Shown piece by piece: positions 1 to 61,435 of a stretch of 64,000 nucleotides of DNA (positions are counted from its first letter, which is position 1; the number at the start of each line of letters is the position of its first letter). Source of the stretch: a virus (Duplodnaviria > Caudoviricetes); IMG/VR virus record IMGVR_UViG_3300010052_000143, positions 1,270 through 65,269 of that record, one strand, 5' to 3'. The notes below the pieces were generated by a model that did not search any database, was not told where the DNA came from, and worked only from the letters and a program-made list of their open reading frames with translations. The translations under genes and the position numbers were made by a program.

Positions 1-438
1 GAGATCGACGGCGACCTGTGGCGCATCCCCGCCGCACGCATGAAGATGTCTCGCGACCACGTCATTCCGCTGACGCCCCAGATCAAACGCATCCTGGCGG
101 AGTTGAAGCAGATCGCAGGCATTTCCGAGTGGATCGTGCCCGGAGTGCGCGACAAGCCGATCAGTCAGAACACATTGATCTTCGCCTTCTATCGTCTCGG
201 CTACCATTCTAAGGCGACTGTCCATGGCCTGCGAGCCACGTTTTCCACCATCGCAAACGAGTCCGGTCTCTGGACGGCAGATGCAATTGAACGGTCTCTT
301 GCGCACGCTCCTCTCGGGAAGGTGCGAGCGTCTTACAACCACGCCCAATTTCTGGATGAGCGGAGGCGGCTGGCGACGTGGTGGAGCAACTTTCTAACGG
401 CGAAAGATCCGAATGACCTCGGTTCGCTGCTGGACTGA
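1..438 (+). CDS. Tyrosine recombinase/integrase (P4-like), C-terminal part, 5' truncated by window
   Basis: Frame open from base 1 (EIDGDLWRIPAARMKMSRDHVIPL); HGLRATFST, IERSLAH and VRASYNHAQ catalytic boxes. Confidence 0.92.
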   Translation, partial: EIDGDLWRIPAARMKMSRDHVIPLTPQIKRILAELKQIAGISEWIVPGVRDKPISQNTLIFAFYRLGYHSKATVHGLRATFSTIANESGLWTADAIERSLAHAPLGKVRASYNHAQFLDERRRLATWWSNFLTAKDPNDLGSLLD

Positions 439-1122
439 TTATCCGCGTTTGAACCTGTCGGAAAGCTGTGAAATCTTGCGCCAGTTTCCGCCCTCGACTG
501 CGATTTCGATATCGGCGCCGACGCGGGTTCCGGACTTTTCAAGCGTGTCCCATTCGAGATCGTAGATCGTCACGCTGGTTCCAATGCCGCGGACTACGCC
601 CAGGATCACGTTTTTCTTGGCGGCGACAGGCACTACGAATTTGGCATCCGGCTCACCAGGCACAGCAACGACGACGGTGATGTTGTGCTTCGCGCCATCG
701 ACAATGGCGTACAGATCAATGTGGTTCTTGTCGGCTTCATCGTCATCGTCCTGTGGCAAGGCCGGGCGACCTCCGCCCATCTGGATGAAACCAGCGACGA
801 TATTGACGGCACCGTTCGAGGCCATCACCGTCTCAGTCGATTTGTTCGGAACGCCGATCGCCAACCAGGCGGGGTCGACCTTTAGGATCTGCGCCATCTT
901 GACGAGGTCTTCCTGCCTCGGTTTGGACAGGCCGGCGAACCAGCGACGGATGGTTTCCTGCGGAACGGCGCGGCCCCACCGCTCTTGGTATTGTTCCGAG
1001 AACCACTTCAGCCGGCCGTGATAGATCTGCGGAATGTTCACGTTCCCGTCGCACGCCTGTTCAAGTCGGCGAGCAAACTCTTTATGAATCACACCGCGGA
1101 CAGGCTTTTTAGTCTCATTCAT
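439..1122 (-). CDS. XRE-family HTH regulator, candidate immunity repressor (track start 1146; ATG 1122 preferred)
   Basis: N-terminal HTH (ETIRRWFAGLSKPRQEDLVKMAQILKVDPAWL); convergent with integrase; three operator-like sites upstream. Confidence 0.7.
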   Translation of the reverse strand: MNETKKPVRGVIHKEFARRLEQACDGNVNIPQIYHGRLKWFSEQYQERWGRAVPQETIRRWFAGLSKPRQEDLVKMAQILKVDPAWLAIGVPNKSTETVMASNGAVNIVAGFIQMGGGRPALPQDDDDEADKNHIDLYAIVDGAKHNITVVVAVPGEPDAKFVVPVAAKKNVILGVVRGIGTSVTIYDLEWDTLEKSGTRVGADIEIAVEGGNWRKISQLSDRFKRG

Positions 1123-1142
1123 ACGTCGATTGATCCCCCTTT

Positions 1143-1199
1143 TCACTATTGACGTGAATCAATTGGCGTTGACATGCGTGAAAGTCAATCCCTGTGTGC
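1143..1199. promoter_or_regulatory. Three TCAC-N7-GTGA-type operator sites upstream of the repressor gene
   Basis: TCACtattgacGTGA 1143-1157, degenerate site ending GTGA at 1181, TCAAtccctgtGTGC 1185-1199. Confidence 0.6.
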
Positions 1200-2600
1200 A
1201 AATATGTCGATGATTCGCTGCTGCGTGACGTCTCGCTCGTTCAACACGGTTAATGCGCGCTCGTCGTATGTTCCCTCTGCAATGATGGGATAGATCAGCA
1301 CCTGTTTCGTCTGCCCGGGCCGCGGAAGACGCATGTTCATTTGCTGCCACAGTTCGAGTGAGAAGGTCAGGCCATACCAGATCATAATGTGACCACCGTA
1401 CTGCGGATTGGTCCCGTGTCCGATCGATGCGGGATGCGCCAGCAACTTGCTGATCTTGCCCTTGTTCCAGTCGCCGATGAGATCGCCCTTGTATTCGTTG
1501 GCGACGACTGCGTCCGGGTAGCGCTTCCTGATTGCGTCCTTGTCGAATTTGAAACTGTAGGCGATCAGCAAGTTCTCACCCTGCGCCGTTTCCACCAGTT
1601 CCTCGAGCGCTTCCATTTTCGCGTCGTGAACATGCACGACAGAGCGGTCCTCGCGATACATATGGCCGTTGGCGAATTGCAGCAGTTTGTTGGCGAGCAC
1701 GCCACTTGAAACAGCCTCGACATCATGGGGCTCGCTGTAGAGCGTCTTTTCGAACTCCCGATAGTCCACCATTGCCTGGGCAGGCAGCCGTACTTGCGTC
1801 GGGATGAAGATCGGATCGTCCGCCACTTTCTCCGGCGGAATGGTCACCAGCAGATGCCCGATTTTCGACAGGATTTCGTCCTCGGCACCCGGCTTCGGGG
1901 TGACGGTATGCGTGTATTTGTCCTTGTCGAAGTAGCGCGTTTCGAAGTCGCTCTTGCTGCGGCCGAGCGCTTGACCCTGGTCGAGTAGATAGGTCTGGCC
2001 CCATAGGGACCGGATGCCCTGCGGCGCCGGCGTGCCGGTGAGCTCGATGACGCGCTCGATCTTGCGACGAGCGGTCGTCATCACGCCGAAGCGGGTCATG
2101 TTGCCACCCGGCCGCTTCTTGATGACGATCTCGCCGGCCTTGTTCACCGTGCGGACCTTGGCCGCTTTCGTGCGCCCTTCTCCCGCCTGGAAGCGGCTTG
2201 ATTCATCGATGACCACAGTGTCCCAGTACCAGTTTTCCACGGTCCTGATGTGCTTGGCGAGCCATTGGAGGTTGTCGAAATTGATCGTCGTCAATTCCGC
2301 CCGCCGCTCGATCGCGGCTATGCGCTCGTCTTCCTCGCCGACGGCGACAGCGACGGATATGCCTCGGGTGTGCTCCCACACGTCGATCTCATCGGGCCAG
2401 GTGTTCGCGGCGACGAACTTCGGCGCGATGACCAGCACATGATGAATTTCGAGCCGGTTGAGCATGTCAACCAATGCCGTGAGAGTGGCGCCGGTCTTCC
2501 CTGAACCCATCCCGCTGATGAGCAGCTTGGCACCGTGCTCGCGGGCGATCTTGGCTATGAGGCGCTGAGACGCGCGCAGGGCAGAACGTGGGCGGATCAC
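1185..2600 (-). CDS. SNF2-like (DEAD/DEAH superfamily 2) phage helicase
   Basis: GMGSGKT Walker A, DESSRF, LTGTP, HPASIGHG motifs; GTG start at 2600 overlaps upstream stop (GTGA). Confidence 0.88.
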   Translation of the reverse strand: MIRPRSALRASQRLIAKIAREHGAKLLISGMGSGKTGATLTALVDMLNRLEIHHVLVIAPKFVAANTWPDEIDVWEHTRGISVAVAVGEEDERIAAIERRAELTTINFDNLQWLAKHIRTVENWYWDTVVIDESSRFQAGEGRTKAAKVRTVNKAGEIVIKKRPGGNMTRFGVMTTARRKIERVIELTGTPAPQGIRSLWGQTYLLDQGQALGRSKSDFETRYFDKDKYTHTVTPKPGAEDEILSKIGHLLVTIPPEKVADDPIFIPTQVRLPAQAMVDYREFEKTLYSEPHDVEAVSSGVLANKLLQFANGHMYREDRSVVHVHDAKMEALEELVETAQGENLLIAYSFKFDKDAIRKRYPDAVVANEYKGDLIGDWNKGKISKLLAHPASIGHGTNPQYGGHIMIWYGLTFSLELWQQMNMRLPRPGQTKQVLIYPIIAEGTYDERALTVLNERDVTQQRIIDIFAHRD

Positions 2601-3646
2601 GCCGCCACCAGCCACGTTTCGAGCGCCGTCTTCGGCCGGCCGGCCAGTCGATCGTCGGCGATCTTCGCGTATGCCGGATTGAGTTCGATCAAGACCGCGT
2701 CGCGGCCGTGCTGCCGTGCGACCATCGCCGTTGTCCCGGCGCCGCCAAACGGATCGAGTACGGTACCGCCTGCCGGGCAGCCAGCGAGGACGCACGGTTC
2801 GATCAGGTCGGGCGGAAATGTTGCGAAATGGGCACCCTTGAAAGGCTTCGGACTGACGGTCCAGACCGACCGCTTGTTGCTCCCCAAACCACGAGCAACG
2901 TCATCAAGGCCGCTCTGATCCGACGACTCGTATTTCGCGTGACGAGGAGGAGTGCCACGAATGCGCGCGATCTTCTCTCGCGCGTTGGCGATGATTCGAG
3001 CCTTCGTGCCACTGGCGGACTGTGCGCCGGCCGCTCGATAGTCCTTGGTGTCGACGCCATCGTAACCGTCGCAGATTTGCTGTAAAAGCGCCTCGCTCGG
3101 CGGGTTTTTGATCGCCTCTGCGTCGTAGAAGTAGCGCGGCGATTTTGACAGCATAAAGATGTATTCGTGCGCCTTCGTACATCGATCACGCACGCTCTCC
3201 GGCATCGGGTTTGGTTTCGACCAGATGATGTCCTGACGCAGATACCAACCATCCGCCTGCAGGGCGAAGGCAACACGCCACGGGATGCCGATCAGGTCTT
3301 TCGACTTCAGCCCAGTGTAGACTTTGTTGCGACCGATCGGCGAGCAATGAAGGGCTGAGACGTGCTTGCCGCCCGTATGACCGCCCCACTTTCCATCGTT
3401 CGCATAGCTGTCGCCAAGGTTCAGCCAAAGAGTTCCGTCATCGCGAAGCACACGGCGGACCTCACGGAACAAATCAACCATGCCGGCGACATACTCGTCA
3501 GGGGTTTGCTCGAGACCCATCTGACCGGTGACACCATAGTCGCGCAGGCCGAAATACGGCGGCGAGGTCACGCAGCAGTGGACGCTGGCATTGGGCATCT
3601 GCCGCAGCACGTCTCGACTGTCACCGACAAGAATTCTGACGGTCAT
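2597..3646 (-). CDS. DNA amino-methyltransferase (N4-C/N6-A, beta class)
   Basis: VTSPPY motif IV near N-terminus, LDPFGGAGTT motif I near C-terminus; ATG 3646 overlaps upstream stop. Confidence 0.9.
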   Translation of the reverse strand: MTVRILVGDSRDVLRQMPNASVHCCVTSPPYFGLRDYGVTGQMGLEQTPDEYVAGMVDLFREVRRVLRDDGTLWLNLGDSYANDGKWGGHTGGKHVSALHCSPIGRNKVYTGLKSKDLIGIPWRVAFALQADGWYLRQDIIWSKPNPMPESVRDRCTKAHEYIFMLSKSPRYFYDAEAIKNPPSEALLQQICDGYDGVDTKDYRAAGAQSASGTKARIIANAREKIARIRGTPPRHAKYESSDQSGLDDVARGLGSNKRSVWTVSPKPFKGAHFATFPPDLIEPCVLAGCPAGGTVLDPFGGAGTTAMVARQHGRDAVLIELNPAYAKIADDRLAGRPKTALETWLVAA

Positions 3647-6975: not shown

Positions 6976-6985
6976 TGAATCACTT

Positions 6986-7588
6986 TCAAAAATCGAAATC
7001 GTTGACTTTGGTCGGCGTCGTCGGAATCGGAATTCCGACCTCGGATTTCCGATTCCGCAGCCCCTGCCAGTAGACCGAGACCCACGTCGCCTGGTGACGA
7101 GCGTCATCGAGTGCGGTGTGCGCGGTGCCTTCGAGCTTGCCGTTGAACGGCACAATACCGTCGGCCAAATCCTTGATCGTGCGGCAGTCACGCACGTTCC
7201 AGAATTTCCATGGCGCGGGCTTCTCAAGGATGCGGCCAAAGGCATATTCGAGGATCGAGATGTCGAACGATGAACCATTGCCCCACGGTCGAATGTCGGA
7301 ACCGTGCTTCAGGCAGAACTCGTAGAACTTCTCAAAGACGAGCGGCGCCGGGTTCTTGCCGCGCACGACCTTCTGCCGTGCGGCGTCGCCCTGCCCCAAC
7401 CACCAGCGGATCGTGTCGCCGGAGGCGCGGCCGAAGCGCATCGCGTCGGCAATGTCTATCGCCGCATCAAAGGTCTCGCCCAACGCACCGGTGTCCGGAT
7501 CGAAGTAGATCGCGCCGATGGCGACGACGGGCGCGTTGGGCGCAGTGCCGAGGGTTTCCAGATCGATCATCAGGTGTTTGAACGTCAT
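6986..7588 (-). CDS. DEDDh 3'-5' exonuclease (DUF5051/exonuclease VIII-like)
   Basis: HLMIDLETLG, WGNGSSFD, RDCRT, HTALDDA motifs. Confidence 0.85.
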   Translation of the reverse strand: MTFKHLMIDLETLGTAPNAPVVAIGAIYFDPDTGALGETFDAAIDIADAMRFGRASGDTIRWWLGQGDAARQKVVRGKNPAPLVFEKFYEFCLKHGSDIRPWGNGSSFDISILEYAFGRILEKPAPWKFWNVRDCRTIKDLADGIVPFNGKLEGTAHTALDDARHQATWVSVYWQGLRNRKSEVGIPIPTTPTKVNDFDF

Positions 7589-9460: not shown

Positions 9461-9523
9461 AAGGAATTTCCACGCATTGTGTGAAATCGAGGGCAGCATT
9501 CCACCCTCGATTTCAGCGCTCCA

Positions 9524-10219
9524 TCAGAGGTCGAAGTCGTTGGAGGCCGACTGCTTCTTCTCGGCCGGCTTGGTGTCGAAGCCATCGTCGTCGGAGACGC
9601 TGTCGAAGTCATCATCGTCGACATAGACACCGCCACCGCCGAGCCGATCCCCCTCTTGAAGCGAACGCACGGCCTCCACCGAGCACGTCAGACGCGCAGT
9701 GCCGCCGTTCTCCGTGCCGTAGAAGGAAATGACAGCGTCACAGTATGTGCCGTTGTAGACGATCTCGTTGATGCGGTTCACATCGTCGAGGATCTTCTTG
9801 TAACGGTCGCGAATCTGCGGACGCTGTTGGCCGCCCTTCGGTCCCTTGGCAGCCACGACGAGATTGCCGGCATAACCCTTGTAGATTTCACCGTCATCGG
9901 ATTTGAACCGGTCACCGCGCTTGAACGAGATGTTGTCCGGCTTGTCGTCCCACAGGGTCTTCCACCAGTCTTCCGGCCGCTTGAATTCACGGCAGGCGGC
10001 CTTGAGCGCAGAGATGACCGCTGCCTTGTTGCTCTCGAAGTGCTCGGCGTAAGGGCCGTCCTTCTCGATGATGAAGTTGGACCCATGCTTCGGCTTCGCT
10101 GCCGGGTCTTTGTTCTTCTTCGGCAGCGTCGCGACCTGCAACGAATCTGCAAACGAAGCGCGAACGCGCGTCAACGTCACGGTGCGGCCTGTCTTGTCTT
10201 TCTCGTTTACTTTGCCCAC
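9524..10219 (-). CDS. DUF2815-family single-stranded DNA-binding protein
   Basis: VTLTRVRASF N-terminus, NGTYCDAVISFY, acidic tail; downstream of DUF2800. Confidence 0.8.
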   Translation of the reverse strand: MGKVNEKDKTGRTVTLTRVRASFADSLQVATLPKKNKDPAAKPKHGSNFIIEKDGPYAEHFESNKAAVISALKAACREFKRPEDWWKTLWDDKPDNISFKRGDRFKSDDGEIYKGYAGNLVVAAKGPKGGQQRPQIRDRYKKILDDVNRINEIVYNGTYCDAVISFYGTENGGTARLTCSVEAVRSLQEGDRLGGGGVYVDDDDFDSVSDDDGFDTKPAEKKQSASNDFDL

Positions 10220-10248: not shown

Positions 10249-11511
10249 TCAGAGGTCGTCGAACTCATCCTCCCACCGCACAAGTGCGGGTTTGGCATGA
10301 GATTCAGGAACGAGCTTCGGCTTGCCCGGCGCTCGATCGAGAATTGCTTGCAGGGCGTCCCAGGTCTCGGGATGGCCCGTTTTGCGCTTGCCGGGCTTCA
10401 CGACCGTCTCGATGTCGGTGATGCCGATAAGCTGACGCGGCTTGTAGGCGGCGTCACCGAGCGCAGCAGTCAGCAGCGCTGCGGCCTTCGCCTGGTCCGT
10501 GAAGTAGCGGTCGCCGAGATCGCCTTCGACGGCTTTCGAGCCAGGATCGGGCCTGCCATCGACGGCAGCACGCAGCGAGTCCTCGTGAAGCGATGCGAGC
10601 CATGCACGGATTTCCGACGCGTGCTTGACGATCTGCCAGCGGCGGGACGGTGTGATCGTCAGGAGGTTCGGAAGTTTCGCTTCGTCGGCCTGCAAATCTT
10701 CCAGATCCTCGACACACATATCGAGCATCCACTTGTTGCGCGCCGGGCAACCGCCGTCCGCCTTCTTCACCTCGCACCAACGGCAGGCAGCCTCGCTGGG
10801 TGCGAACTCGATCTCCCCAGTGACGTTCAGGATTTCGAACAGACCGCTCGTGCCAATGCGACGAATTTCCACGTTGCCCGACGCGATCTTCGCGTAGACC
10901 GCCTTCATCTCGTCGCCGAAGGCCAGAAGCTCATCGAGCGAGACTTCCCAGAACTTCATCCCGCCGGCGCGCGGCTGGTCGATGTTCATCACCACGCGAT
11001 CGACGTCCGGCTGCCCGAGGTAGTGCCACGCGCCGAGGGCGTACAGCCGAAGCTGTTTGTTATCGGTTGCGTCGACGGGCTCACCCGCTCCATATTTCAG
11101 ATCGCTGATGAAAAGCGTTCGGATCAGGCCCTCGATCCACGCCGTATCGCATGTGCCGAATTGGCCGGGCAGCCAGGGCGAGAGGTCCACGCGGATTTCG
11201 ACCAACGGATTTGCGGTGTGCTCGCGGACCCAGTCGATGCCTGTCTGCAGATGCGAGGCCATGTCCTCGTCGACTGTGAACTCGTATCCGTCCGCCTGCA
11301 TGGAGAGGCCGACGAAGTGATGCGGATCGACACCGAACTCCAAGCACAGTTCGCGCACCTCATGCGCCACGGTGCCCTCGGCCGCGTAGACCGACGAGTC
11401 GCGCTCCGGCACGATGCCAGCGGCGCGCAGCTTGTCGATCAGCGACGCCGACGCAGTACAGGTCGACCAACGGCTACATGCTGACGGGGAAAGGCGGGCG
11501 TGTGCTGTCAT
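10249..11511 (-). CDS. DUF2800 Cas4/RecB-like exonuclease
   Basis: HARLSPSACSRW..C, AAEGTVAHE, FGTCD, DLKYG, NKQLRLYALG, CRWC. Confidence 0.85.
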   Translation of the reverse strand: MTAHARLSPSACSRWSTCTASASLIDKLRAAGIVPERDSSVYAAEGTVAHEVRELCLEFGVDPHHFVGLSMQADGYEFTVDEDMASHLQTGIDWVREHTANPLVEIRVDLSPWLPGQFGTCDTAWIEGLIRTLFISDLKYGAGEPVDATDNKQLRLYALGAWHYLGQPDVDRVVMNIDQPRAGGMKFWEVSLDELLAFGDEMKAVYAKIASGNVEIRRIGTSGLFEILNVTGEIEFAPSEAACRWCEVKKADGGCPARNKWMLDMCVEDLEDLQADEAKLPNLLTITPSRRWQIVKHASEIRAWLASLHEDSLRAAVDGRPDPGSKAVEGDLGDRYFTDQAKAAALLTAALGDAAYKPRQLIGITDIETVVKPGKRKTGHPETWDALQAILDRAPGKPKLVPESHAKPALVRWEDEFDDL

Positions 11512-11978
11512 TGACCGGGTTTCCCGGCAACCAATTCCCGCAAACGCTGCACAGCGGCAGTCTGATGGGGGACGCCGAGCATCTTCCAAAGAGTCGAAAG
11601 GGCAGACGTCGCTGATTGTGCCGCGATACTGTCGGACGAGTATCCCTTTGCCCAATGAGGACGCATCGCCTCATAATCTTCGATTTTCCTATTCGCCTCA
11701 GCGAGTTGGGCTTTCAGCCGGACAACTTCGGCACTGTTGACATGCCTACGTCCCTCATTGAGCAGTGCGTCCGCAACCTCGTAGGCAACAATCGCAATAT
11801 CCGTCGGCGACTTGTCTGCTTTACCTCTTACGGTCCCCGCCATCGCGATCAACCCAACAGAAGCCTGCCCCGCGAAATAGTCGCGGCGCGACATGCCGAC
11901 AGACACGGGAGCAAAGTCGCGCGAACGCGCATCGATCGGTGTCGGGAAGGCCGGCCCGCCGTCGTTGTTCGTGCTCAT
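11508..11978 (-). CDS. Conserved phage hypothetical protein
   Basis: GGPAFP...GMSRRDYFAGQA motif common in phage early proteins. Confidence 0.65.
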   Translation of the reverse strand: MSTNNDGGPAFPTPIDARSRDFAPVSVGMSRRDYFAGQASVGLIAMAGTVRGKADKSPTDIAIVAYEVADALLNEGRRHVNSAEVVRLKAQLAEANRKIEDYEAMRPHWAKGYSSDSIAAQSATSALSTLWKMLGVPHQTAAVQRLRELVAGKPGQ

Positions 11979-12560: not shown

Positions 12561-13046
12561 CTAGAGGTCGAGGTCGTCGGCCGCCTTTGCGGGCGTCGTG
12601 ATGTCGCCCTTCTCGGTGAGCTTCGCGACCTGGCTCTTGAAGAGGTCGATGGCCGATTCCATGATGTCGTCGACGTTCTTCGCGGTCTCGACGCCGGCCT
12701 TCTTGATTTTCTCGTGGTTGAGAAGCGCCTTCATCTTCTCCTTGCGCGCCGTGCGCTCTTCCTCGCGCGGCGAGCCGCCGATGTAGGCAGCGATCAGTTC
12801 CTTGACGCCGTCGTAGGGGTTGCTGGAGTCGGCGGGATCGCGCCGGTCTTCAGGCGACGTCGAGATGTTGGCGCCGGTGCCGGCATCGGTCTTCGTGTCG
12901 GTCTTCTTGCGAGTTGTCGAAGTCGCTGCAGCAGCGGCGCCGACCTTTTCGATGGCGTCGGAGCGAAGGGCGATCAGTTCCTTGGTAACCGAAGCCATCT
13001 CGCGGAGGGCGGCGGTGTTTTCGGCAAGCAGTTGTTCGAGGCTCAC
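12561..13046 (-). CDS. Hypothetical protein, first gene of the leftward replication operon
   Basis: AGGAGA RBS before GTG 13046; LEQLLAENTAAL N-terminus; ends DDLDL. Confidence 0.65.
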   Translation of the reverse strand: MSLEQLLAENTAALREMASVTKELIALRSDAIEKVGAAAAATSTTRKKTDTKTDAGTGANISTSPEDRRDPADSSNPYDGVKELIAAYIGGSPREEERTARKEKMKALLNHEKIKKAGVETAKNVDDIMESAIDLFKSQVAKLTEKGDITTPAKAADDLDL

Positions 13047-13195
13047 TGGTATCTCCTGATTGGGCGGTTTCAATTTCGCCTCATCGTTTTTCCACACAAT
13101 GATTGTAATTTCAAGCCGTCCAGCAAATTTTTCACACATTGATTGCTTTTTTGAAAACGCGTCGATATGGTCCAAGCATCCAACGGGGTGAACAT

Positions 13196-13501
13196 ATGGA
13201 AACGAAGCCAAGCCTGGGCCGGCCGCGCAAAGACGGTCCCAGTGAGATATACTCCGGCGCGTTGTATCAGCTGCTGGTGGCCAAACTGCCTTCCGAACAC
13301 ATCAATTTCGGGAGGATCGACACCGCAAGTTTGGCGAAAGGGACCGGTAACGCACGCTTTACGCTGTACCGGTGGTTCGAAAGCAATAGTCTGTCGAAGG
13401 CCGCGATTCGATCCCTGCTCGAGGTTTCGAAGAACGCCAAGCTCGCGAAAGAGCGCGGAAAGCTGACCAGGGACGACCTGATCCCGTTCATCGGCATCTG
13501 A
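13196..13501 (+). CDS. Small HTH protein (Cro-like)
   Basis: ASLAKGTGNARFTLYRWF HTH; divergent from replication operon, upstream of primase. Confidence 0.6.
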   Translation: METKPSLGRPRKDGPSEIYSGALYQLLVAKLPSEHINFGRIDTASLAKGTGNARFTLYRWFESNSLSKAAIRSLLEVSKNAKLAKERGKLTRDDLIPFIGI

Positions 13502-13511: not shown

Positions 13512-16016
13512 ATGAGCAGGGAATCCGCGCTCGAAGGCGTAATCGAGTCCGTTCGACCGTTGATTGAGGCGGGTGCGGCGTTGCACTGGCTTGTGCCGTT
13601 CGAGAAACGGCCGATTGCAGACGAATGGGCCAGCGCCGCGGTGCAGTCCGAAGCCGATCTGCGCAAATCCTATCGCACAGACGCCAATATCGGCGTGCGA
13701 TTGGGCGAACCGTCGCGCATAGACGGTGCGTATCTTCACCTGATCGACCTCGACATCCGCGATGCGGATCTTGCCGACGAAGCGTGGAACGAGCTTCTGC
13801 AGCGCTGGCCCGGCGCGCGGTCGTTCCCGACGGTCATCAGCGGTTCAGGCGGCGCCAGCCGGCACATCTATTTCCTCACCGACAAGCCGTTCTCGAAGCG
13901 AAAGCTCGCCAAGTCAGCTGATTTCACTTTGGTGTGGGACGAGCGCAAGCAGCGCGATGTCCGGAAGTTCGATTGGGAAATCGACGTTTACGGAACCGGC
14001 GCCCAAGCGGTCATTCCGCCGTCAATCCATCCCGATACCCGCCTGCCCTATCGATGGGAGCGCGAGATTGATCCGGATTTCCCGCTGTTGATGACCGTCG
14101 ACTCCAGAATGGTGGAGTCGTGGGGCGTTTCGACTTCAACCGCCTCAACGATCGACGATGACGAGGACGATCTTTTCACCCTGATGCGGCACAGTCCGAT
14201 GGACCTGACGCCGGACGAGGTCGACGGTGTCATCGCGGACCTGCCGGCTGACTGGGTCGACGACCGCGACCAATGGCTCACCGTCGGCGCTGCCCTCCAT
14301 CACCAGTTCGAAGGCACGAATTCGGGATTCGAGCGGTGGAACGAATGGGCAAAGCAATCGCCCAAATTCGACGCCCGCGATTCAGCGCGTGTCTGGAAAT
14401 CCTTCAAGGGCAGCAAGAATCCCGTCCGCATGGCGACGCTGATCCAGGCGGCCAATGCGAATCGACTGTCCCTTGACCTCGATCTTGGAGACGACGGATT
14501 CGACCTGCCGGCCGTGATCCCCGCTCCGGCCGCCGCGGCTGGCGACTTCGATCTGACCGATCTGCTCGGCGACACGCCCTCGCCAACATCCACGGAAGCG
14601 GAAAATCGCGACGAGATCGACCCGAACTGGGTGCAGAAACTGCACCGCGGCGAAGAAGGCGACCTCAAGGCCACGCTGCCGAACATCGCTCTCATCGTCG
14701 ACAACGACCCGCGCTTCCGCGGCATCGTCTCCTTCAACGAGTTCACGCAGGAAATCGTGCTGCGTGGCACCAGCCGCCGCGCGAAAAAGAAGCGCGAGTC
14801 GGCGCACGACCCGGCCAACCTCGACGGGAAGCTGTGGGACGTGAAGGATTGGTTGAACGGCGACAACTGGACCGACAGTCACGACATCGCGATCCGCTCG
14901 ATCATCGAATCGAAAACGCAGATGAAGGGTTACGGGATCAAAGTAAGTGACCGAGACCTGCGCGGCGGCGTCGACATCTCGGCACAGAAGCGATCCTTCC
15001 ACCCTGTCAGGGAACTGCTCGAAAGCGCGATCTGGGATAGCCGTCCGCGGGCGGAAACGATGTTCATCGACTACCTTGGCGCCGACGATACGCCCTACCA
15101 CCGCCAGGCGGCGTTGATGACGCTGGTCGGCGCCGTGGCGCGCATCTACCGGCCGGGCCACAAGTTCGATTTCGTGCCTATTCTCGAAGGCGTGCAAGGC
15201 AAGGGCAAGTCCACCTTCATCCGTGTCCTCGGGTTGCATTGGATGAACGAGCTTGCCGGCGACATCGGCGATCCGAAGCAGATGGTCGAAGTCATGCTGG
15301 GCACCTGGGTGCTTGAGATCGGCGAGCTATCGTCGATGCACCGCGCCGAGGTGAACGACCTCAAAGCGTTCGTCAGCCGGACGCACGACAAGGTGCGCCT
15401 TGCGTGGGAGAAACGGGCTCGTGAATTCCCGCGCCAGTGCATCTTCATCGGCTCGACGAACGACCGCGAATACCTGAAAGATCAGACCGGCGGCCGGCGC
15501 TTCTGGCCAATCGTCTGCAAGATTGATGGCGAGATCGACAACGCCCTTTTTGAGCAGAACGTGATGCAGATTTGGGCCGAAGCCGTTCATATCTACAAGC
15601 GAATGCGCGCGGAGCATAAGGGCCGGGAACTCCCGCTCTATCTGACCGAAGAAGCCGCACTGCAGGCCGTTGCAATGCAGGAAAGCCGCCGGGTCGAAAC
15701 GGTCGAGGAGATCATGGCAGGCAAGATCGGGGCGTGGCTCGATCAGCCCATAGGCACCGACAGCGGCTTCGACGACCTCGACGCCGACGCCCCGAAGCTC
15801 TACCGTCAGGTGACCTGCGTAGCGCAGATTTGGGAAGAGATGATGGGCCGCGACGGCACCATCCCGCACACCGAATCGACCAAGATCGGCAAGGCCCTGA
15901 CGGTCGCCGGTTGGCCACGGTCAGCAGGCATCGTGTCGAGTTACGACGTCAACAAAAAATACGGAAAATGCCGCGTGTACTTCCGGCCCGGAACTCAGAT
16001 TCACGAACAAGACTGA
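13512..16016 (+). CDS. Primase-helicase: Prim-Pol + PriCT-2 + VapE-like ATPase
   Basis: NIGVRLG/LIDLD Prim-Pol motifs, DRDQWLTVGAALH PriCT-2, GVQGKGKST Walker A, GGRRFWPI. Confidence 0.9.
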   Translation: MSRESALEGVIESVRPLIEAGAALHWLVPFEKRPIADEWASAAVQSEADLRKSYRTDANIGVRLGEPSRIDGAYLHLIDLDIRDADLADEAWNELLQRWPGARSFPTVISGSGGASRHIYFLTDKPFSKRKLAKSADFTLVWDERKQRDVRKFDWEIDVYGTGAQAVIPPSIHPDTRLPYRWEREIDPDFPLLMTVDSRMVESWGVSTSTASTIDDDEDDLFTLMRHSPMDLTPDEVDGVIADLPADWVDDRDQWLTVGAALHHQFEGTNSGFERWNEWAKQSPKFDARDSARVWKSFKGSKNPVRMATLIQAANANRLSLDLDLGDDGFDLPAVIPAPAAAAGDFDLTDLLGDTPSPTSTEAENRDEIDPNWVQKLHRGEEGDLKATLPNIALIVDNDPRFRGIVSFNEFTQEIVLRGTSRRAKKKRESAHDPANLDGKLWDVKDWLNGDNWTDSHDIAIRSIIESKTQMKGYGIKVSDRDLRGGVDISAQKRSFHPVRELLESAIWDSRPRAETMFIDYLGADDTPYHRQAALMTLVGAVARIYRPGHKFDFVPILEGVQGKGKSTFIRVLGLHWMNELAGDIGDPKQMVEVMLGTWVLEIGELSSMHRAEVNDLKAFVSRTHDKVRLAWEKRAREFPRQCIFIGSTNDREYLKDQTGGRRFWPIVCKIDGEIDNALFEQNVMQIWAEAVHIYKRMRAEHKGRELPLYLTEEAALQAVAMQESRRVETVEEIMAGKIGAWLDQPIGTDSGFDDLDADAPKLYRQVTCVAQIWEEMMGRDGTIPHTESTKIGKALTVAGWPRSAGIVSSYDVNKKYGKCRVYFRPGTQIHEQD

Positions 16017-31831: not shown

Positions 31832-32160
31832 GCGAGATCAGCAGTATTCTCGCCGACGTCGCCGAAGCGCCGTTCGACCAGACCGGCCGCCCGGTGCCGG
31901 GCAAGCTTCAGGCGACATGGCTGACCGTCACGCAGGAAGGCTGGGAAGCCGTCGCGGTGTTTCGCTTTATCGAGCGTTGGAACGTCTTCCGCGGTCCTGA
32001 TCCGGTCGAATGCCTGCGACTTGCATTGACCACACCGCCCAACACGGCGCCGCTGGATCGCGTCAAGCTCGCGCCGGCCGAGATCACCAACGCGGTGCTC
32101 AGTCCAGCCCTAAATGTGCAGCCTGAATCGGTGCTTGTCGATGACGATCTCCTTGTCTGA
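31828..32160 (+). CDS. Hypothetical protein
   Basis: ATGA coupling; ends DDDLLV. Confidence 0.55.
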   Translation: MSEISSILADVAEAPFDQTGRPVPGKLQATWLTVTQEGWEAVAVFRFIERWNVFRGPDPVECLRLALTTPPNTAPLDRVKLAPAEITNAVLSPALNVQPESVLVDDDLLV

Positions 32161-32353
32161 CGTCGAGCGCGCCATCCGGCAGCAGAATGTGCTTGGCGCC
32201 AACATCCACTTCGACGGCCGGGTGTTTCGGGTTCACGTCCGCCAGTCCGTCAACACAGGCTTTCTCTGCGCGCAGCAGTCGCATGACACTCTCGCCGGAG
32301 CCCTCGCTGAGCACTTCACGGCAGATGGTGACCTGAGCGATCTGCTGGACTGA
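32141..32353 (+). CDS. Hypothetical protein
   Basis: Operon context; ends DLSDLLD. Confidence 0.55.
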   Translation: MTISLSDVERAIRQQNVLGANIHFDGRVFRVHVRQSVNTGFLCAQQSHDTLAGALAEHFTADGDLSDLLD

Positions 32354-32382: not shown

Positions 32383-33861
32383 ATGAACTCCATCCAACTG
32401 ATCCCCGGCGACAACCGCATCTCGCTTCGCCGGCTGATCGACCAGGGCGTGCGTGTCCATTCGGTCGTGACCGATCCGCCGTATGGGCTCGTCTCGATCC
32501 AGAAGCGCTTCGGCAAGGAAGGTGCAGCCGCCGCGCGGCGTGAAGGCAACGACGGAAGCTTCGCGCGGCTGTCCGGTGGCTTCATGGGCAAGGCGTGGGA
32601 CGGCACCGGCATCGAGCGCGATCCCGAGTTCTGGAAGCTGATCTACGACATCCTGCTGCCGGGCGGCTATGTCTTCGCGTTCAGCGGCAGCCGCACCGGC
32701 CACTGGCAAGCCTGCGCCATGGAGATTGCAGGCTTTATCATGCATCCGATGCACGGCTGGGTGTTCGGGAGCGGATTCCCGAAGGCGCACGCGGCCGACA
32801 AGGCGATCGACAAACATCTCGGCGTTGAAGGCGGCTTCATTGCCGAAGGCGAGCCGGTCAAGCGAATGATCCCCGGCGCCGACCAGCATCGTGAGGGCTC
32901 GTGGATCAAGGACGACGGTCGTGAGTACCAGCCAGGTTCCTACGTTCCCGGTTCTCCCGAGGCAGCAGAGTGGGAAGGCTGGGCCTACGGCACCCAGACG
33001 CAGAAGCCTGCGATCGAACCTATCTATCTCGGTCAGAAACCGTTCAGCGAGAAGACCGGCGCCGCCAATCTGCTGAAGCACGGCGTCGGTGCGGTCAACA
33101 TTGATGAATGTCGGGTGCCTGCTGACGGCCGCCCACTTCTTGTCGGCGACTACAAACCGACCAGGGCCAACGCCTATTCAGGACGGATGGACGGTTCCCT
33201 TGCCGGAGGCAGCAAGGCAGTCGGGACGACCGACACCGGCCGCCATCCATCCAACTTGATCCTAGACGGTTCGCCCGAGGTGGTCGCCATGTTTCCGTCG
33301 CAGGCCGGCGCAGCAGCAGCCAGCGGCCCGACCCAATCCGGTAAGTCGAAAAGCGGCAGCATGGCCGGGCACTTCAACGGCATGGGCGATCGGCCACCGC
33401 AATTCCATGGCGACACCGGCTCCGCGGCCCGCTTCTTCCACCATTTTCCTCCGGATGCGGACCCACTGATCTACCACCCAAAGGCGGGCAAAGCTGACCG
33501 GGCCGGCAGCAGCCATCCGACAGTCAAGCCGGTCGCCCTGCTGCGCTATCTGATGCGCCATATCACTCCAAAGTGTGGGATAGTTTTAGACCCCTTCGCA
33601 GGCTCGGGAACCACTGGACAGGCTGCAAAGCTCGAAGGTTTCGACTGCATTTTGATGGAAGCCGAGCCGGAATACGTCGAATTTATCAACACCCGTTTCG
33701 ACCTGGTGGATGCTGCGCCGGTCTACGTTGACCCAAGGGAGACTCCAATGATAGGAATGAAATCCTACGACCTAAGCGAGCTGCTTGGGCCCGATGACAA
33801 CGATCTGACGTCCTTGCTGGATGACGTTGCGTCCGTTGTGCCAGACGCGCTCCTTGTATGA
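32383..33861 (+). CDS. DNA amino-methyltransferase (N6-A/N4-C, beta class)
   Basis: VTDPPYG, GSGFPK, HPTVKP, LDPFAGSGTT. Confidence 0.88.
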   Translation: MNSIQLIPGDNRISLRRLIDQGVRVHSVVTDPPYGLVSIQKRFGKEGAAAARREGNDGSFARLSGGFMGKAWDGTGIERDPEFWKLIYDILLPGGYVFAFSGSRTGHWQACAMEIAGFIMHPMHGWVFGSGFPKAHAADKAIDKHLGVEGGFIAEGEPVKRMIPGADQHREGSWIKDDGREYQPGSYVPGSPEAAEWEGWAYGTQTQKPAIEPIYLGQKPFSEKTGAANLLKHGVGAVNIDECRVPADGRPLLVGDYKPTRANAYSGRMDGSLAGGSKAVGTTDTGRHPSNLILDGSPEVVAMFPSQAGAAAASGPTQSGKSKSGSMAGHFNGMGDRPPQFHGDTGSAARFFHHFPPDADPLIYHPKAGKADRAGSSHPTVKPVALLRYLMRHITPKCGIVLDPFAGSGTTGQAAKLEGFDCILMEAEPEYVEFINTRFDLVDAAPVYVDPRETPMIGMKSYDLSELLGPDDNDLTSLLDDVASVVPDALLV

Positions 33862-51214: not shown

Positions 51215-51259
51215 TATTTCACTCCTTTGCTTGTTTTCCACACATAGCGTGATTTTCTA

Positions 51260-53184: not shown

Positions 53185-53269
53185 GGCAGTAATCCTTCTG
53201 CTGGTTTCGATTGCGGTGGAGAGGAAAATGCCCGGCGGCTTGCGCGACCGGGCATCAAGCCGAACGCAA

Positions 53270-54367: not shown

Positions 54368-54430
54368 TTCAAATTACCTCGTTTCGGTTGGGCCAAAGGC
54401 TACCGGGCCTTCGAGCCCGGCCACCGGCGA

Positions 54431-54886: not shown

Positions 54887-54939
54887 TTGCTGGCTCCTTC
54901 GTGGTTTGTGGGTTTACGATCTGGGGCGAACAGGCCCCG

Positions 54940-56190: not shown

Positions 56191-56561
56191 GCCGACACTC
56201 CGTACGACAGTTGACCCTCGGACAAATGGCTCGCGAACCCGAAGGATTTCCAACACGGGTCGGCTGGATCGATCTGCACGACCACTCGGGGGAAAGCTGG
56301 CGACCATGTGTAGCCCACCAAGTCTGACGCGATGTCCCCCACGTCGATGTAGCCGGCAGGCAGCCCGGCATCGAGCAGTCGGAAACAGCCACCGAACCAG
56401 AAGGCCCACTGCGATTTTGCGTAGCCGGGCATGTTCTGGCGGTGAGCAAGCCCACTTTCGTCATGCAGAACTATCAGCGATCCGTCCCTCGGCGCGTCAG
56501 CCATGTGCCACCGATGGCCACCGGGAAATTCCTCGGGAGAAGTTTTTGTCTTGGTCATCAT
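56187..56561 (-). CDS. Hypothetical protein inserted between portal and protease
   Basis: ATGA overlaps at both ends; WHMADAPRDGS motif. Confidence 0.55.
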   Translation of the reverse strand: MMTKTKTSPEEFPGGHRWHMADAPRDGSLIVLHDESGLAHRQNMPGYAKSQWAFWFGGCFRLLDAGLPAGYIDVGDIASDLVGYTWSPAFPRVVVQIDPADPCWKSFGFASHLSEGQLSYGVSA

Positions 56562-58249
56562 GCGGCTTCTTTCTCGCGAGGCTCAGCCGTCAGCGAATTT
56601 TCCATGTCTTTGGAATCCTGGTCGTAGATCGACGGATTGCCGTAGTACTCGTCCAGTTCGCGCTCGCGCTTGTTCTGGCGCGCAACGCGACGCCAATCGC
56701 CGCCGGACATCCGCGCGATCTCGTGTTCCTTGGTGGAGAGGCCGCCCTTGATCTTGAGCATCGCGGCCTGCGTCTCCTTGAGCGGGTCGATCTGCCCCTG
56801 CCCTGCGCCGATCCACTCGCATGCGCTGTACGCCTCGGCGTTCAAACCGTCGTAGAACAGCGGCACGTTTGGCCGCTTCAGGCATTCGAGCTGGTTGTAG
56901 TTGATCGCCTCTTCGAGCCAGAGCCGATAGATGAAGTTCGCGGTGGCATCGGCCACGGCGCGCTTCTTCGCCTGCATCGTCTTCCAGGTCTCGCCCATCG
57001 CGGCGCGGGCCGACGAGTAGTTCGTCTGGGTGTAATCGCGCGAAAGCTGTTCGTATGATACGCCGAGCGCCGCCGCGATGTAGCGCAGCAGGCTCATCTC
57101 GAACTTGTCGCCAACGGGCCCGTTGGCCCCGGGGTTCTGGATCTTGAGGTGGGTGCCGGGCGCAAAGATCGGAATCTTTGCGCCGTCCATATGCAGGTTC
57201 TTGGCGCCGCTGGAATATTCAGAAATGGCGTCGAGATACTGCCGCATCCACTGCGTTGTCGGATTGGCGTTTTCCCCAGTTGCCGCTCCGCCGAGTGCCG
57301 TCTGAACATCTTCGGGAATCTCGGATTCGATTGAGGCGGCGTAGGTGGCCGCCACCACTGCGCGTTCGAGTTCCGTTTTGCGGAAATGCTTGGTCATCCG
57401 CATTTCGGTGAGCGCCGAGACGATCTTCGAAATGCCCCGCGTCTGATCCGGTCGCATCGTCTCGAACAGATGCAGGATCATCGGTCGACCCCAGGGCTTT
57501 CGCGCCGGCACGCGCGTCCAAGTCGAGGCACTGAGGTCGGTGAAGTTGGCGAAACGCCCTTCGTTCGGATGGCTGTTGCGGATGTGGTATGCGACCGGCG
57601 CACCACGGCGATCACGTTCGACGCCGCGACGGATGCGTGAATTGGGGACCATGATCTGATCCATCGGCGTCGACAGCCGATCGGTGTCGATCATCTGCAT
57701 CGCGACGCGGAACGGACGGCCGTCATCGGGCATCCATTCCGCCGAGGCGAGGACTTCGCCGCCGGCCATGTCGACGCTCACCGCAAGGCGAATTTGGTCG
57801 GTGAAAACATTCCGGCGCGCTGCGTCGACCCATTTCTGCGGGCTTTCGGCCCACAACATGAATTTGGTCTCAAGCTCTTCCTGCGCCTCTGTTTCCCACT
57901 TCTCGTCCTCTTTGCCGAAGAGGACTTTGGTCTCTGGCTTGGCGTTCAGCTGGTAGCGCGCACCGACGATGGAATCCTTGTAGATCGATGCACCGCCGGA
58001 GACGTAGGCGTCGTTGGCAAACGTGTCGCGGACGCGGGCGTCGAGCGATTCCTTAACCGGCAGCAGATCGGCGTCAGCCGATCGCAGCACCGGATTCCAC
58101 ATCGCCAGTCGATCGGTCTTTTTGGCACCATCATAGGCGACGCCGCCCGACGCCACCGCCGAAGCGCCGGGCAACGCTACCAAGCCAGTTCCTACCGGGG
58201 AGACGCCGGTGTCTGGTCCTAGCAAGTCGGTGAGGTCGAATTCGCTCAT
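56558..58249 (-). CDS. Portal protein (lambda family)
   Basis: ARVRDTFAND, QTRGIS, GVSYEQLSRDYTQTNYSSARA, IDPLKE. Confidence 0.9.
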   Translation of the reverse strand: MSEFDLTDLLGPDTGVSPVGTGLVALPGASAVASGGVAYDGAKKTDRLAMWNPVLRSADADLLPVKESLDARVRDTFANDAYVSGGASIYKDSIVGARYQLNAKPETKVLFGKEDEKWETEAQEELETKFMLWAESPQKWVDAARRNVFTDQIRLAVSVDMAGGEVLASAEWMPDDGRPFRVAMQMIDTDRLSTPMDQIMVPNSRIRRGVERDRRGAPVAYHIRNSHPNEGRFANFTDLSASTWTRVPARKPWGRPMILHLFETMRPDQTRGISKIVSALTEMRMTKHFRKTELERAVVAATYAASIESEIPEDVQTALGGAATGENANPTTQWMRQYLDAISEYSSGAKNLHMDGAKIPIFAPGTHLKIQNPGANGPVGDKFEMSLLRYIAAALGVSYEQLSRDYTQTNYSSARAAMGETWKTMQAKKRAVADATANFIYRLWLEEAINYNQLECLKRPNVPLFYDGLNAEAYSACEWIGAGQGQIDPLKETQAAMLKIKGGLSTKEHEIARMSGGDWRRVARQNKRERELDEYYGNPSIYDQDSKDMENSLTAEPREKEAA

Positions 58250-58473
58250 CCCCAAACCGGCCGCAGCGGTCGGCGCGCATCGGCGGAAGTACCGGCAAGC
58301 TGCGCTTTGAGATCGGCGATGTAGGCTTTCAGACGAGAGACATTGGCGGACGTAAAGCGAATGCTCTCGCCGTTGCTGTCGCGAACTTCGACGGCGGCAC
58401 GACCGAGAACGAGATCGCGCATTGCGGCCTCTGCTTCGGCGAGCCATGTCTGCAGTTCGGAAGTTGTCGCCAT
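58246..58473 (-). CDS. Head-tail joining protein gpW
   Basis: LAEAEAAMRDLVLG..AVEVRDSNGESIRFT.AN...LKAYIADL. Confidence 0.85.
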   Translation of the reverse strand: MATTSELQTWLAEAEAAMRDLVLGRAAVEVRDSNGESIRFTSANVSRLKAYIADLKAQLAGTSADARRPLRPVWG

Positions 58474-58563
58474 CGAGAGTCCTGCCCGGAAGTTCCCAAC
58501 CCAGTTACAGTCAATTCGGTCATTTTGCAAGCATTGTGTGTATTTCACAGTATACGTGAAAGT

Positions 58564-60744
58564 TTACGCAAGCTTTTTGGCGAGCTCGGCAAACGTGGAT
58601 GCCGGCTTTGGTCCTGTCGGCGGCGGCTCGCTGATCCTTCCGCCGACCACCAGCTCGTTGGCATTCCACTCGGCGGCCCACGCCGGCGGCTGCTCCCAGT
58701 TGATGCGATGCATCTGGATATTCACCCATGGAAATTCGTTGCCTTCGATGGGTCGGTAGAGCAGGCCGACCGCGTAGGCGGTGAGATCGAATGCCTCGTT
58801 GCGACGGTTGCCGATCTTCTGCCAGCCTTTGGCAGATCGCATTTCGTTGGTCATCTGCGAATAGAACCACTTTGGCATCCAGTTCGGGTAGCGCAGCTTG
58901 CCTCCGCCGTCTTCCGCATCGTCCGCCGCAATACGTCGCGCCATCAGATTGGCCACTGTATCCTTGACCAGTGTGGAGCCGAAATGGATGCGCGGGATCG
59001 CGCCGCGCACGAGGGCGTTTTTCTGGCCCACGCCGATCTCGGTCATCACGGATTTCGCGATAGGCCAATCCTTCCTTGGCTCGCCCTTGCTTATGGCGAA
59101 CCTGCGGTGCGATCCATCGTTACGCGCCTTCAACCTCTGCCAGAATCGATATGCCTGGGTGGTGACGCCTTCTTCACCGTAGCCGTCAACGGACGCCATC
59201 CTGACGCGCATGCGCCGACCGCTGTCGTCCGCCAGTTCGTAGGTTTTGTTGAGGGCCTGTTCGACGAGCATGTCCCAGTCTTCCGCGAACGCGCGCGGAT
59301 CGATCGGAAGGTTGGCGCCGTCCGCATCGAGGCGGCGCGACGACTTGATCTTCCATCCGTCGATCACCACTAGGTCGCCGTTGGCCATTGCGCCGGTGGT
59401 CTGGCAGACGAAGCCATCCTTTTGGACGTCGACCGTGACGACGAGGAACCGAACACCTTCCGGCACCGTCGGATTCTCAGGTGTCGACCCCCAATCCTCG
59501 GCACGCTCGCGCAGTTCCTCGGGATTGCGCTCGGACAGCCGCGACTTGGAAACGTAGTACATCCCCTGGTCGGTCGTGACTGTCTTCCGTAACGGGCCTT
59601 CGTCACCCGTCTGCTCGTAGGCGCGCAGCGCGGTGATGTAGGCTTCGACCAGGTCGCCCCACGAGAAGTATCCGGCCGCCGGACCCTTCAACCAGAACGA
59701 CGCGATCTTGGAGCGGGCGATCTTCATGCCCGGCCGCGCAACCACTTTGCCGTCGACCGTCACCATCGCCCCATCCGGCACCCAAACGCCGCGGGAATTC
59801 ATGCGGTCTTTTTCACGCGGCTCGATCACGCAGCCAGTTGGACACAGCATGAAAACCGCCTCGACGGCCTCCGCGACGCTTGTCGCTTCCTCCCAGCCGC
59901 GCAGATGTTCGAAGCGGCCTTCAAAATACTCGCGGCAATGTGGGCACGGCCAGTACCAGCAGCGTCGATCGCCGCGCTGGTAGAGCTCGAAAATACCTGG
60001 CGACGGCGGCGCGGCGTGGGGGGAGTCGGGCACCCATTTCGGATCGGGCATTTCCTTGTCGGGATTCGGAGAGCTTTCGGCTGCCGTCATGCCGAAGCGG
60101 CCCTTGGTTCGCGTGCGAGTCGCCCCGAGATCGTAGGAGTTTGAACCCTCGGCAGCATTGTCGTCCATGCGATCGTAATCCATGAATCCAACCTTACCCA
60201 CCGTAATTGCGGACAGGTTACTCGCGGTCGGGAACGTTAGGTTGAATCGCATTCCAGACTTGAACTGCTTGTCGTAGGTGTTGTCGTACTGCCTGGCCGT
60301 TAGCTGGCGCGAACGCACATCGCTAGATGCGACCAAATAGCGATCGAACTCACCCTTCGACCACTTGCGGCCGTTCTTCGCATCGGTATGAACGATCAGC
60401 ATGTCGTCAGGATCATTCATGACCGTGTGCGTGAGCCAGTTCAGAAACATCACGGATTTGCCCGTTCTAGCTGGCCCCACGAATATCATGCCCCGATAGT
60501 CGAGGCTGGTCAGCAAGTCCTGCGGTTCGGCGATATATGGCGTCTTCTCCAGCGACCACGGGACCGTGCGTCCAGACCCGGAACCGATGCGCGTATAGCG
60601 CTGTGCCGACTCGGTAACCGTCAGCCGCTCACTAGGGCTGAACGTCTCGGCAACGTGCGCGATCAACTGCTCGAGGGACGGAAATGGTGCAGCGTCGATC
60701 AACTCGTTCAGCGTCGACGGCCGCATCGACTTATGAATCGTCAT
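58564..60744 (-). CDS. Terminase large subunit (GpA family)
   Basis: GPARTGKS, DYDRM, ESSP, WPCPHC..C, VTVDVQ, RNEAFDL. Confidence 0.92.
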   Translation of the reverse strand: MTIHKSMRPSTLNELIDAAPFPSLEQLIAHVAETFSPSERLTVTESAQRYTRIGSGSGRTVPWSLEKTPYIAEPQDLLTSLDYRGMIFVGPARTGKSVMFLNWLTHTVMNDPDDMLIVHTDAKNGRKWSKGEFDRYLVASSDVRSRQLTARQYDNTYDKQFKSGMRFNLTFPTASNLSAITVGKVGFMDYDRMDDNAAEGSNSYDLGATRTRTKGRFGMTAAESSPNPDKEMPDPKWVPDSPHAAPPSPGIFELYQRGDRRCWYWPCPHCREYFEGRFEHLRGWEEATSVAEAVEAVFMLCPTGCVIEPREKDRMNSRGVWVPDGAMVTVDGKVVARPGMKIARSKIASFWLKGPAAGYFSWGDLVEAYITALRAYEQTGDEGPLRKTVTTDQGMYYVSKSRLSERNPEELRERAEDWGSTPENPTVPEGVRFLVVTVDVQKDGFVCQTTGAMANGDLVVIDGWKIKSSRRLDADGANLPIDPRAFAEDWDMLVEQALNKTYELADDSGRRMRVRMASVDGYGEEGVTTQAYRFWQRLKARNDGSHRRFAISKGEPRKDWPIAKSVMTEIGVGQKNALVRGAIPRIHFGSTLVKDTVANLMARRIAADDAEDGGGKLRYPNWMPKWFYSQMTNEMRSAKGWQKIGNRRNEAFDLTAYAVGLLYRPIEGNEFPWVNIQMHRINWEQPPAWAAEWNANELVVGGRISEPPPTGPKPASTFAELAKKLA

Positions 60745-61435
60745 CGGTCACCGGTTCGTCGGGCAGTGTGCCGGCGGCGTTCAGTTCCATGTGGATGGTG
60801 TGAGCCATCGACTGTGTCTTGAACTGCTGTGGCATCTCGACCAGAGCCTTGCGAATCTGCTCGTTGAGCCGGTTCGTAGCGTCGATAATCGCGTTGTATT
60901 GCTCGTTGGTCAGCAAGTCCTTTTCGGGCAAATCGTCCACCCATGACTTGCTCTCCTCGCGGATCAGCATCAGGACGCGGCCGAAGACCATCATCACGTC
61001 TTCATCGTGCCAAAGCTGGTTCGACGATCGCATGACGCGGTTGCGCTGGTGCGCCGAGTCCCACCACATCTTGTTGACGTAGGGCGGCAGGCTGGCGGCA
61101 TTCTGTTGCGCGAACCAGTCCTCGATATTGCCCTGCGGCGGAATGAGGAATGACAGGGCGGTGATGAAATCATAGAGCGGCTGTTGCTTGCCGCCGTGGC
61201 TCGTCAACTTCTCGACCGGGCACTTTTCGAGCCGCTTCTGGATCTGCTTCGGCTGCTTGCCGAGGATATTGGCGAGGAAAGTGACGCCGACTGGACGCCG
61301 GAATTCGGTGTAGTGCGGCAGATCGGATGCCATCGCGGCTTGCAGCTTTGCCGCAGCCTCCTCACGCGTCGGCCGACCTGGACCGCGACGAGGTGGAGCG
61401 CTGTCGCCGAGCAATTCGGTCAAATCCCCACTCAC
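60731..61435 (-). CDS. Terminase small subunit (DUF1441-like)
   Basis: Directly upstream of terL; SLPPYVNKMWW...LWHDEDV. Confidence 0.7.
   Translation of the reverse strand: MSGDLTELLGDSAPPRRGPGRPTREEAAAKLQAAMASDLPHYTEFRRPVGVTFLANILGKQPKQIQKRLEKCPVEKLTSHGGKQQPLYDFITALSFLIPPQGNIEDWFAQQNAASLPPYVNKMWWDSAHQRNRVMRSSNQLWHDEDVMMVFGRVLMLIREESKSWVDDLPEKDLLTNEQYNAIIDATNRLNEQIRKALVEMPQQFKTQSMAHTIHMELNAAGTLPDEPVTDDDS

Follow-up and report, generated by a model that had tools for sequence, protein, structure and literature searches.

A seven-residue peptide shared by the portal, small terminase and DNA enzymes of a temperate phage is a candidate docking motif for one common receptor

We analyzed a 64,000-nucleotide stretch of phage DNA (the window; positions 1,270 to 65,269 of IMG/VR record IMGVR_UViG_3300010052_000143, nearly all of that 65,269-bp virus record), in which a six-frame scan identified seven copies of the peptide DL[STG][DES]LL[GD] on six unrelated proteins. 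An initial annotation of the window had proposed that this peptide is a phage-specific docking motif recruiting integration, replication, methylation and packaging enzymes to one hub. The evidence presented below leads us to give an even chance to the following reading: the peptide is a short linear docking motif for a single receptor that co-evolves with it, and the packaging vertex, above all the large terminase, is the likeliest receptor. The phage is temperate. Its proteins share 50–70% identity and a matching gene order with phages of the Rhodobacter capsulatus RcMcDreamy type, and a prophage of Mesorhizobium sp. AR07 and other Mesorhizobium prophages are nearer to it than RcMcDreamy (50–80% identity across the RcMcDreamy and Mesorhizobium prophage proteins). 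The head module is lambda-type, with a DUF1441-type small terminase, a gpA-type large terminase, gpW, a PF05136 portal, an S49 protease and a gpE-type capsid; the replication module is Chi-like and includes a gp2.5-like single-stranded DNA-binding protein (SSB).

The portal and the small terminase carry the peptide at their N-termini. The lambda-family portal (gene 56558–58249, minus strand) begins MSEFDLTDLLG (58217–58249), ahead of a Phage_portal_2 domain that starts at residue 46, and the small terminase (gene 60731–61435, minus strand, GTG start) begins MSGDLTELLGD (61403–61435), ahead of a DUF1441 domain that starts at residue 51. Directly after the small-terminase copy lies a basic, AT-hook-like segment with the sequence GRP (residues ∼15–30), in which K/R-x-G-R-P-[ST] is kept in relatives. 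Three proteins, all encoded on the plus strand, carry C-terminal copies: a tyrosine integrase whose gene begins before the window and ends at 438, and whose final seven residues are DLGSLLD (415–435); a small open reading frame (ORF 32114–32353, 79 residues, no family match) that ends with DLSDLLD (32330–32350); and an N6/N4 DNA methylase (gene 32383–33861) whose tail holds both DLSELLG (33769–33789) and DLTSLLD (33802–33822) after the N6_N4_Mtase domain, which ends at residue 435. The remaining copy, DFDLTDLLGD (14544–14573, plus strand), is internal and occupies the linker of a Prim-Pol/PriCT_2/VapE primase-helicase (gene 13512–16016) between PriCT_2 (end at residue 314) and VapE (start at residue 503). 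Every copy listed in the initial annotation was thus recovered, and the Pfam boundaries place all of them outside the conserved domains, as that annotation had described.

The copies are far too numerous to be a product of composition. Within the 17,280-residue proteome, DL[ST][DE]LL occurs five times against 0.009 predicted by composition (Poisson P∼5e-13) and the seven-residue form occurs seven times against 0.003, while the expectation from shuffled proteomes is 0.007–0.01 copies. The pattern was picked post hoc from the data themselves, a concern that is removed because the motif recurs independently in relatives. Enrichment over shuffled and composition-matched controls therefore holds (5–7 copies versus 0.003–0.01), which rules out chance or composition as the source of the copies. 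A repeat acting at the DNA or RNA level is likewise ruled out, as synonymous codons vary among the copies and both strands are used; the variation in synonymous codons indicates that conservation acts on the peptide.

The motif is retained at orthologous places in RcMcDreamy, in the AR07 prophage and in wider sets of homologues, so that conservation is confirmed as well. RcMcDreamy has variants at the aligned integrase tail, small-terminase N-terminus, portal N-terminus, primase linker and methylase tail; its methylase orthologue reads DLSDLF at the aligned position and terminates in DELLV, and its small protein hyp54, whose neighborhood matches that of ORF 32114–32353, ends DLSDLFQ. In the AR07 prophage the carriers are the integrase, small terminase, portal and primase, together with an SNF2-type helicase, tagged at the N-terminus, and a second methylase, unrelated to the first and tagged at the C-terminus. 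Orthologous positions in proteins of 50–80% identity retain the motif while their flanks vary. Approximately 100 of 120 portal homologues have it inside the first 15 residues, where Leu9 and Leu10 of the leader are almost invariant and the remainder is variable. The motif is also present in the tail of 76 of 120 integrase homologues and in the linker of 48 of 62 anchored primase homologues, with a density in the linker of 1.0 per 100 residues versus 0.04 in the rest of the protein (24-fold). Among 50 non-redundant relatives for which both N-termini are available, 47 small terminases carry it; 44 of these relatives have the tag on both portal and small terminase, five on one and one on neither, negatives too few for a correlation test. 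Position 1 is Asp or Glu, the two leucines are followed by Gly in 36–37 of the 47 copies on portal and small terminase, and the final position is rarely Phe. The carriers belong to at least eight unrelated families and extend beyond the set found in the window to AlpA-type excisionases, a helicase and the second methylase.

Several variations on the arrangement were observed. Some portals (e.g., P0011, P0030 and P0040) have two tandem N-terminal copies, and in one lineage (IMG/VR contigs L098, L103 and L107) the portal bears an additional copy, of the variant typical of that genome, 26 residues before its C-terminus. Acidic-x-L-L-V or a near variant closes approximately ten RcMcDreamy proteins, among them the integrase, two methylases, an exonuclease and several small early proteins, and the methylase of the window terminates in PDALLV after its two motif copies; these ends may represent a C-terminal form of the same tag.

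An indirect indication of a common partner comes from co-variation within genomes. We compared 47 non-redundant relatives (IMG/VR contigs, genome loci, the window and RcMcDreamy) in which the portal leader and the small-terminase arm both bear an acidic φ-x-x-L-L-G peptide, where φ is a hydrophobic residue. The portal and small-terminase copies share on average 4.77 of 9 identities within genomes versus 3.41 when genomes are shuffled, and none of 20,000 shuffles reached the observed similarity, a comparison that leaves the kinship of the genomes in place. The similarity joins non-homologous proteins and is repeated across many distinct variants: SVDEMLG is paired with SIDEMLG, DIDALIG with DIDSLIG, and EFDELLG is identical in both. 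Other carriers, namely integrase tails, AlpA-type excisionase tails, methylases, the helicase and the primase linker, also match the variant of their own genome, and one contig displays EFEAL on four proteins. Identical residues use the same codon at a frequency of 0.50 within genomes versus 0.44 between genomes, which argues against recent gene conversion between the copies. Because codon sharing is barely higher within genomes, selection for one binding specificity, rather than copying of DNA, is the simplest cause, and the receptor would co-evolve with the tag copies of its genome.

The host genome, to judge from the matches in AR07, makes no use of the motif. A degenerate DNA pattern for the motif has 169 matches in the 8.7-Mb AR07 genome, hardly above the 136 of the control, and nine of these matches are grouped in the 65-kb prophage; the five inspected outside it are all internal to globular host proteins. 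The peptide is therefore phage-specific in the sense that the host does not employ it and that its matches cluster in the prophage, but it is shared by a large group of phages and so is not private to this one, which qualifies the initial annotation on this point. The tag appears to be an old feature of a large phage group defined by lambda-type portals and gpA-type terminases, and of small satellite-like elements. One such element, in a Mesorhizobium assembly (L111:10001–18777), has only an integrase, a primase, a Nu1-like small terminase, a gpA-type large terminase and a short portal; another, in a Paracoccaceae genome (L112:10001–21046), has the same gene set and a fused protease-capsid. 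In both, the integrase, primase and small terminase are tagged and the portal is not. Their large terminase is gpA-type, their protease/capsid is S78 and unrelated to that of the phage, and neither a polymerase nor an SSB is encoded in the 10-kb region examined downstream of the integrase. The layout of these elements is similar to that of capsid-forming phage-inducible islands.

An AlphaFold2 model of the portal built from 114 sequences (mean predicted local distance difference test, pLDDT, of 79; predicted template modeling score of 0.73) has a confident body and a disordered leader. Within this 47-residue leader, pLDDT is below 50 at residues 1–4 and 13–47, between which the motif (residues 5–12) forms a small island of slightly higher values. 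Docking of the leader in cis on its own subunit was rejected, as the model leaves the leader disordered; this result says nothing about the dodecamer. The hydrophobic spacing i, i+3, i+4 and the trailing Gly suggest a short, capped amphipathic helix. The motif has the traits of a short linear motif: it occupies disordered or linker sites, it is a conserved island within variable flanks, and it recurs on unrelated proteins.

The docking proposal is thus supported by four lines of evolutionary evidence that are independent of one another: retention at orthologous positions, likeness within genomes without gene conversion, concentration in the prophage and disorder of the leader. None of the hubs that the initial annotation had named (SSB, GapR, ORF 12561, ClpX and the sliding clamp) is favored. 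In the mechanism that we propose, the peptide, with a consensus of acidic, hydrophobic, x, acidic, Leu, Leu and a capping Gly or Asp, would likely form a one- to two-turn amphipathic helix on disordered termini and linkers, and every copy in one genome would bind one common receptor. The leader of the portal and the arm of the small terminase, both N-terminal, would be the ancestral, near-universal carriers, with the integrase, excisionase-like proteins, DNA methylases, primase-helicase and helicase having probably gained the tag later, in this lineage. Through the tag, the motor would pass from small terminase to portal, and the enzymes of excision, replication and methylation would gather where DNA is packaged.

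As to the identity of the receptor, we place the packaging vertex at just under an even chance and, within it, the large terminase itself at roughly one chance in three. The gpA-type large terminase (58564–60744, minus strand; Pfam GpA_ATPase and GpA_nuclease) is a candidate because it is the sole protein known to touch both the small terminase and the portal, because it is a conserved DNA enzyme that is itself untagged, as is the DNA polymerase, and because it is present, in gpA-type form, in the minimal satellite-like elements that retain the tag. The lambda counterpart, gpA, binds both gpNu1 and the portal (PMC3224144; PMC2366019). The last ten residues of the large terminase of the window are TFAELAKKLA, a tail kept across relatives, lambda and phage 21, and in lambda this tail is the prohead-binding end of gpA (PMC4856287; PMC2366019). 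We considered whether DLSALL in lambda gpA is a copy of the tag on the terminase and rejected it: this sequence belongs to a conserved helix that ends the nuclease domain, phage 21 has DLAVLA at this place, and the real docking tail, which is conserved, lies further downstream.

Several points weigh against the large terminase as receptor. Lambda-type small terminases contact the large subunit through their C-termini, and here the tag is N-terminal. An integrase or a primase has no obvious need to be at the terminase, and a weak form of the motif is also found at the end of one integrase homologue whose island has no head genes within 10 kb. Lytic relatives tag the small terminase and replisome proteins with a different acidic C-terminus, an arrangement that suits a replisome hub equally well. 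Finally, the lambda portal leader is cut off within the prohead before packaging (record annotation; PMC3224144), and a receptor inside the prohead fits this observation better than the terminase does.

One alternative, which we regard as improbable, is that the peptide is a capsid-targeting signal that docks on the prohead core (S49 protease/scaffold); its carriers would then be taken into the head and accompany the DNA on delivery, and the tag may be clipped. The T4 capsid-targeting sequence, which is found on internal proteins and on Alt, is a cleaved, exclusively N-terminal tag of proteins internal to the virion. It is analogous to the tag described here in that both are short, amphipathic, acidic address peptides on unrelated proteins of one phage; the present tag differs in being also C-terminal or internal and in its presence on the small terminase. 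Such targeting would explain how the portal is incorporated into proheads, and the lambda gpB leader, annotated as cleaved, has LLGPD in common with the portal leader of the window. In addition, Nu3 is required for incorporation of gpB and gpC interacts with gpB (PMC3224144). The small terminase, however, is a near-universal carrier that works outside the head, at least four of the seven copies break the N-terminal rule of T4-type tags, and an 834-residue primase-helicase would have to be cargo. The satellite-like elements, moreover, retain the tag despite their unrelated S78 protease/capsid, and their portal is untagged.

An equally unlikely alternative, though a serious one, is a replisome hub, in which the peptide is a lineage-specific version of the T7-type acidic tail, binding basic patches of the DNA polymerase or the groove of a gp2.5-like SSB and tying packaging to replicating DNA. 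The phage encodes a gp2.5-like SSB, and T7 offers a precedent: the tails of gp2.5 and gp4 bind polymerase, and in the crystal of the Enc34 SSB the tail occupies a neighbor's groove (PMC5686142). Like the window tag, the T7 tails are acidic-hydrophobic peptides shared within one phage machine. Four proteins of the window, the SSB (9524–10219), an exonuclease (6986–7588), a DUF2800 nuclease (10249–11655) and ORF 12561–13211, all on the minus strand, have short acidic-hydrophobic ends (DFDL, DFDF, FDDL and DLDL), and FDL stands immediately before the motif in primase and portal. These ends look like a second tag of T7 type, and they may also represent the main motif in truncated form, given the FDL that precedes it in primase and portal. 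Two lytic relatives each put one acidic C-terminal tail on the small terminase and on replication proteins: in Salmonella phage Chi the small terminase, primase, helicase, DUF2800 nuclease, gp2.5-like SSB and RdgC are acidic-tailed, mostly closing with DEV, and in Xanthomonas phage FoX4 acidic runs closing with EL terminate the methylase, helicase, small terminase and portal. No LLG motif was found in Chi or FoX4, and no mention of their shared tails was found in the Enc34 SSB paper (PMC5686142). Against a replisome hub, the satellite-like elements are tagged with neither polymerase nor SSB in the region read, and the core carriers are packaging proteins. T7 tails also require a C-terminal aromatic residue and a free C-terminus; the motif is N-terminal or internal in three carriers, ends in Gly and covers packaging and lysogeny proteins, and it is the separate tails of the SSB, exonuclease, DUF2800 nuclease and ORF 12561 that have the T7 form.

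Quite improbable, in our estimate, is recruitment of a conserved protein of the host, for example the sliding clamp, a chaperone or a protease adaptor. The carriers are DNA enzymes, like the clients of the clamp or PCNA, and the [ST]-D-L-[LF] core recalls the final residues of clamp-binding motifs. Clamp-binding peptides include the bacterial QL[SD]LF and the C-termini of T4 gp43, gp33 and gp55, through which T4 links replication, late transcription and packaging, and in both cases one short hydrophobic peptide brings many DNA enzymes to a single hub. The window tag differs from these peptides in the absence of the Gln at position 1, which is Asp or Glu here, in LL-G with a conserved trailing Gly in place of LF, Phe being rare, and in its genome-specific variants. 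The AR07 matches are grouped in the prophage, a count in which clamp clients were not individually scanned, and no phage clamp gene was recognized. The island integrase without phage-head context retains a weak motif, as a host receptor would allow, and lambda gpB requires GroEL/ES (PMC3224144). The motif, however, is unused by host proteins in AR07, and a conserved host pocket leaves the genome-specific variants unexplained. Finally, we consider it very improbable that the copies have no common partner and are a recurrent structural or linker element, or that each is an autoinhibitory acidic tail packed against the protein that bears it: DNA binding is common to all carriers, and T7 gp2.5 provides an example of an acidic tail that shields a DNA-binding surface (PMC5686142), but this leaves the seven-residue pattern on unrelated folds and its co-variation within genomes unexplained, and AlphaFold leaves the portal leader undocked on its own subunit.

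A close counterpart among known systems is the leader of lambda gpB. This leader of 21–22 residues, removed in prohead maturation, belongs to the same PF05136 family and occupies the same extreme N-terminal place before the wing domain, and it shares hydrophobic-LLGPD with the portal leader of the window (LLGPDG in the 22-residue annotated leader). It is without acidic residues, and the phage 21 leader is weaker still. The lambda small terminase is of a different family with no N-terminal tag arm, and no further carrier was found in lambda nu1, W, B, C or gpA. The portal copy may thus be ancient and the gpB leader a distant copy of it; the function of that leader is stated as unknown (PMC3224144). 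The prohead-binding tail of lambda gpA is likewise a peptide at the end of a packaging protein that serves for docking on the portal, with a homologous tail on the large terminase of the window (PMC4856287); it differs from the tag in its sequence, T-hydrophobic-x-E-L-A-x-x-L-A at the very C-terminus, and in being confined to the large terminase. The general type of tag is therefore known from T4 capsid targeting, clamp peptides and T7 tails, and this peptide, its set of carriers and its co-variation appear to be new. The initial annotation knew of no description of such a tag, and we found none of the peptide, of the carrier set or of the portal/small-terminase co-variation in the literature searched, most subscription journals being outside its scope.

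A seven-residue peptide thus connects portal, small terminase and the enzymes of lysogeny, replication and DNA modification across hundreds of proteobacterial phages and prophages, in a field where assembly and packaging are usually treated domain by domain. A broader picture, which we regard as doubtful, is that the packaging motor is a programmable hub: a single site on the large terminase or portal vertex would read a lineage-specific zip code that couples excision, replication, methylation and packaging, satellites would plug into it, and lambda would retain a vestige of it in the gpB leader. Cultured relatives that infect a laboratory strain of Rhodobacter capsulatus make the idea directly testable. 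The receptor, if found, would assign a role to the leader that is cleaved from the lambda portal, account for how the hand-off of the terminase to the portal is specified, tell whether DNA enzymes are recruited to the packaging vertex or loaded through it, and supply a compact, portable tag with which proteins could be sent to that vertex.

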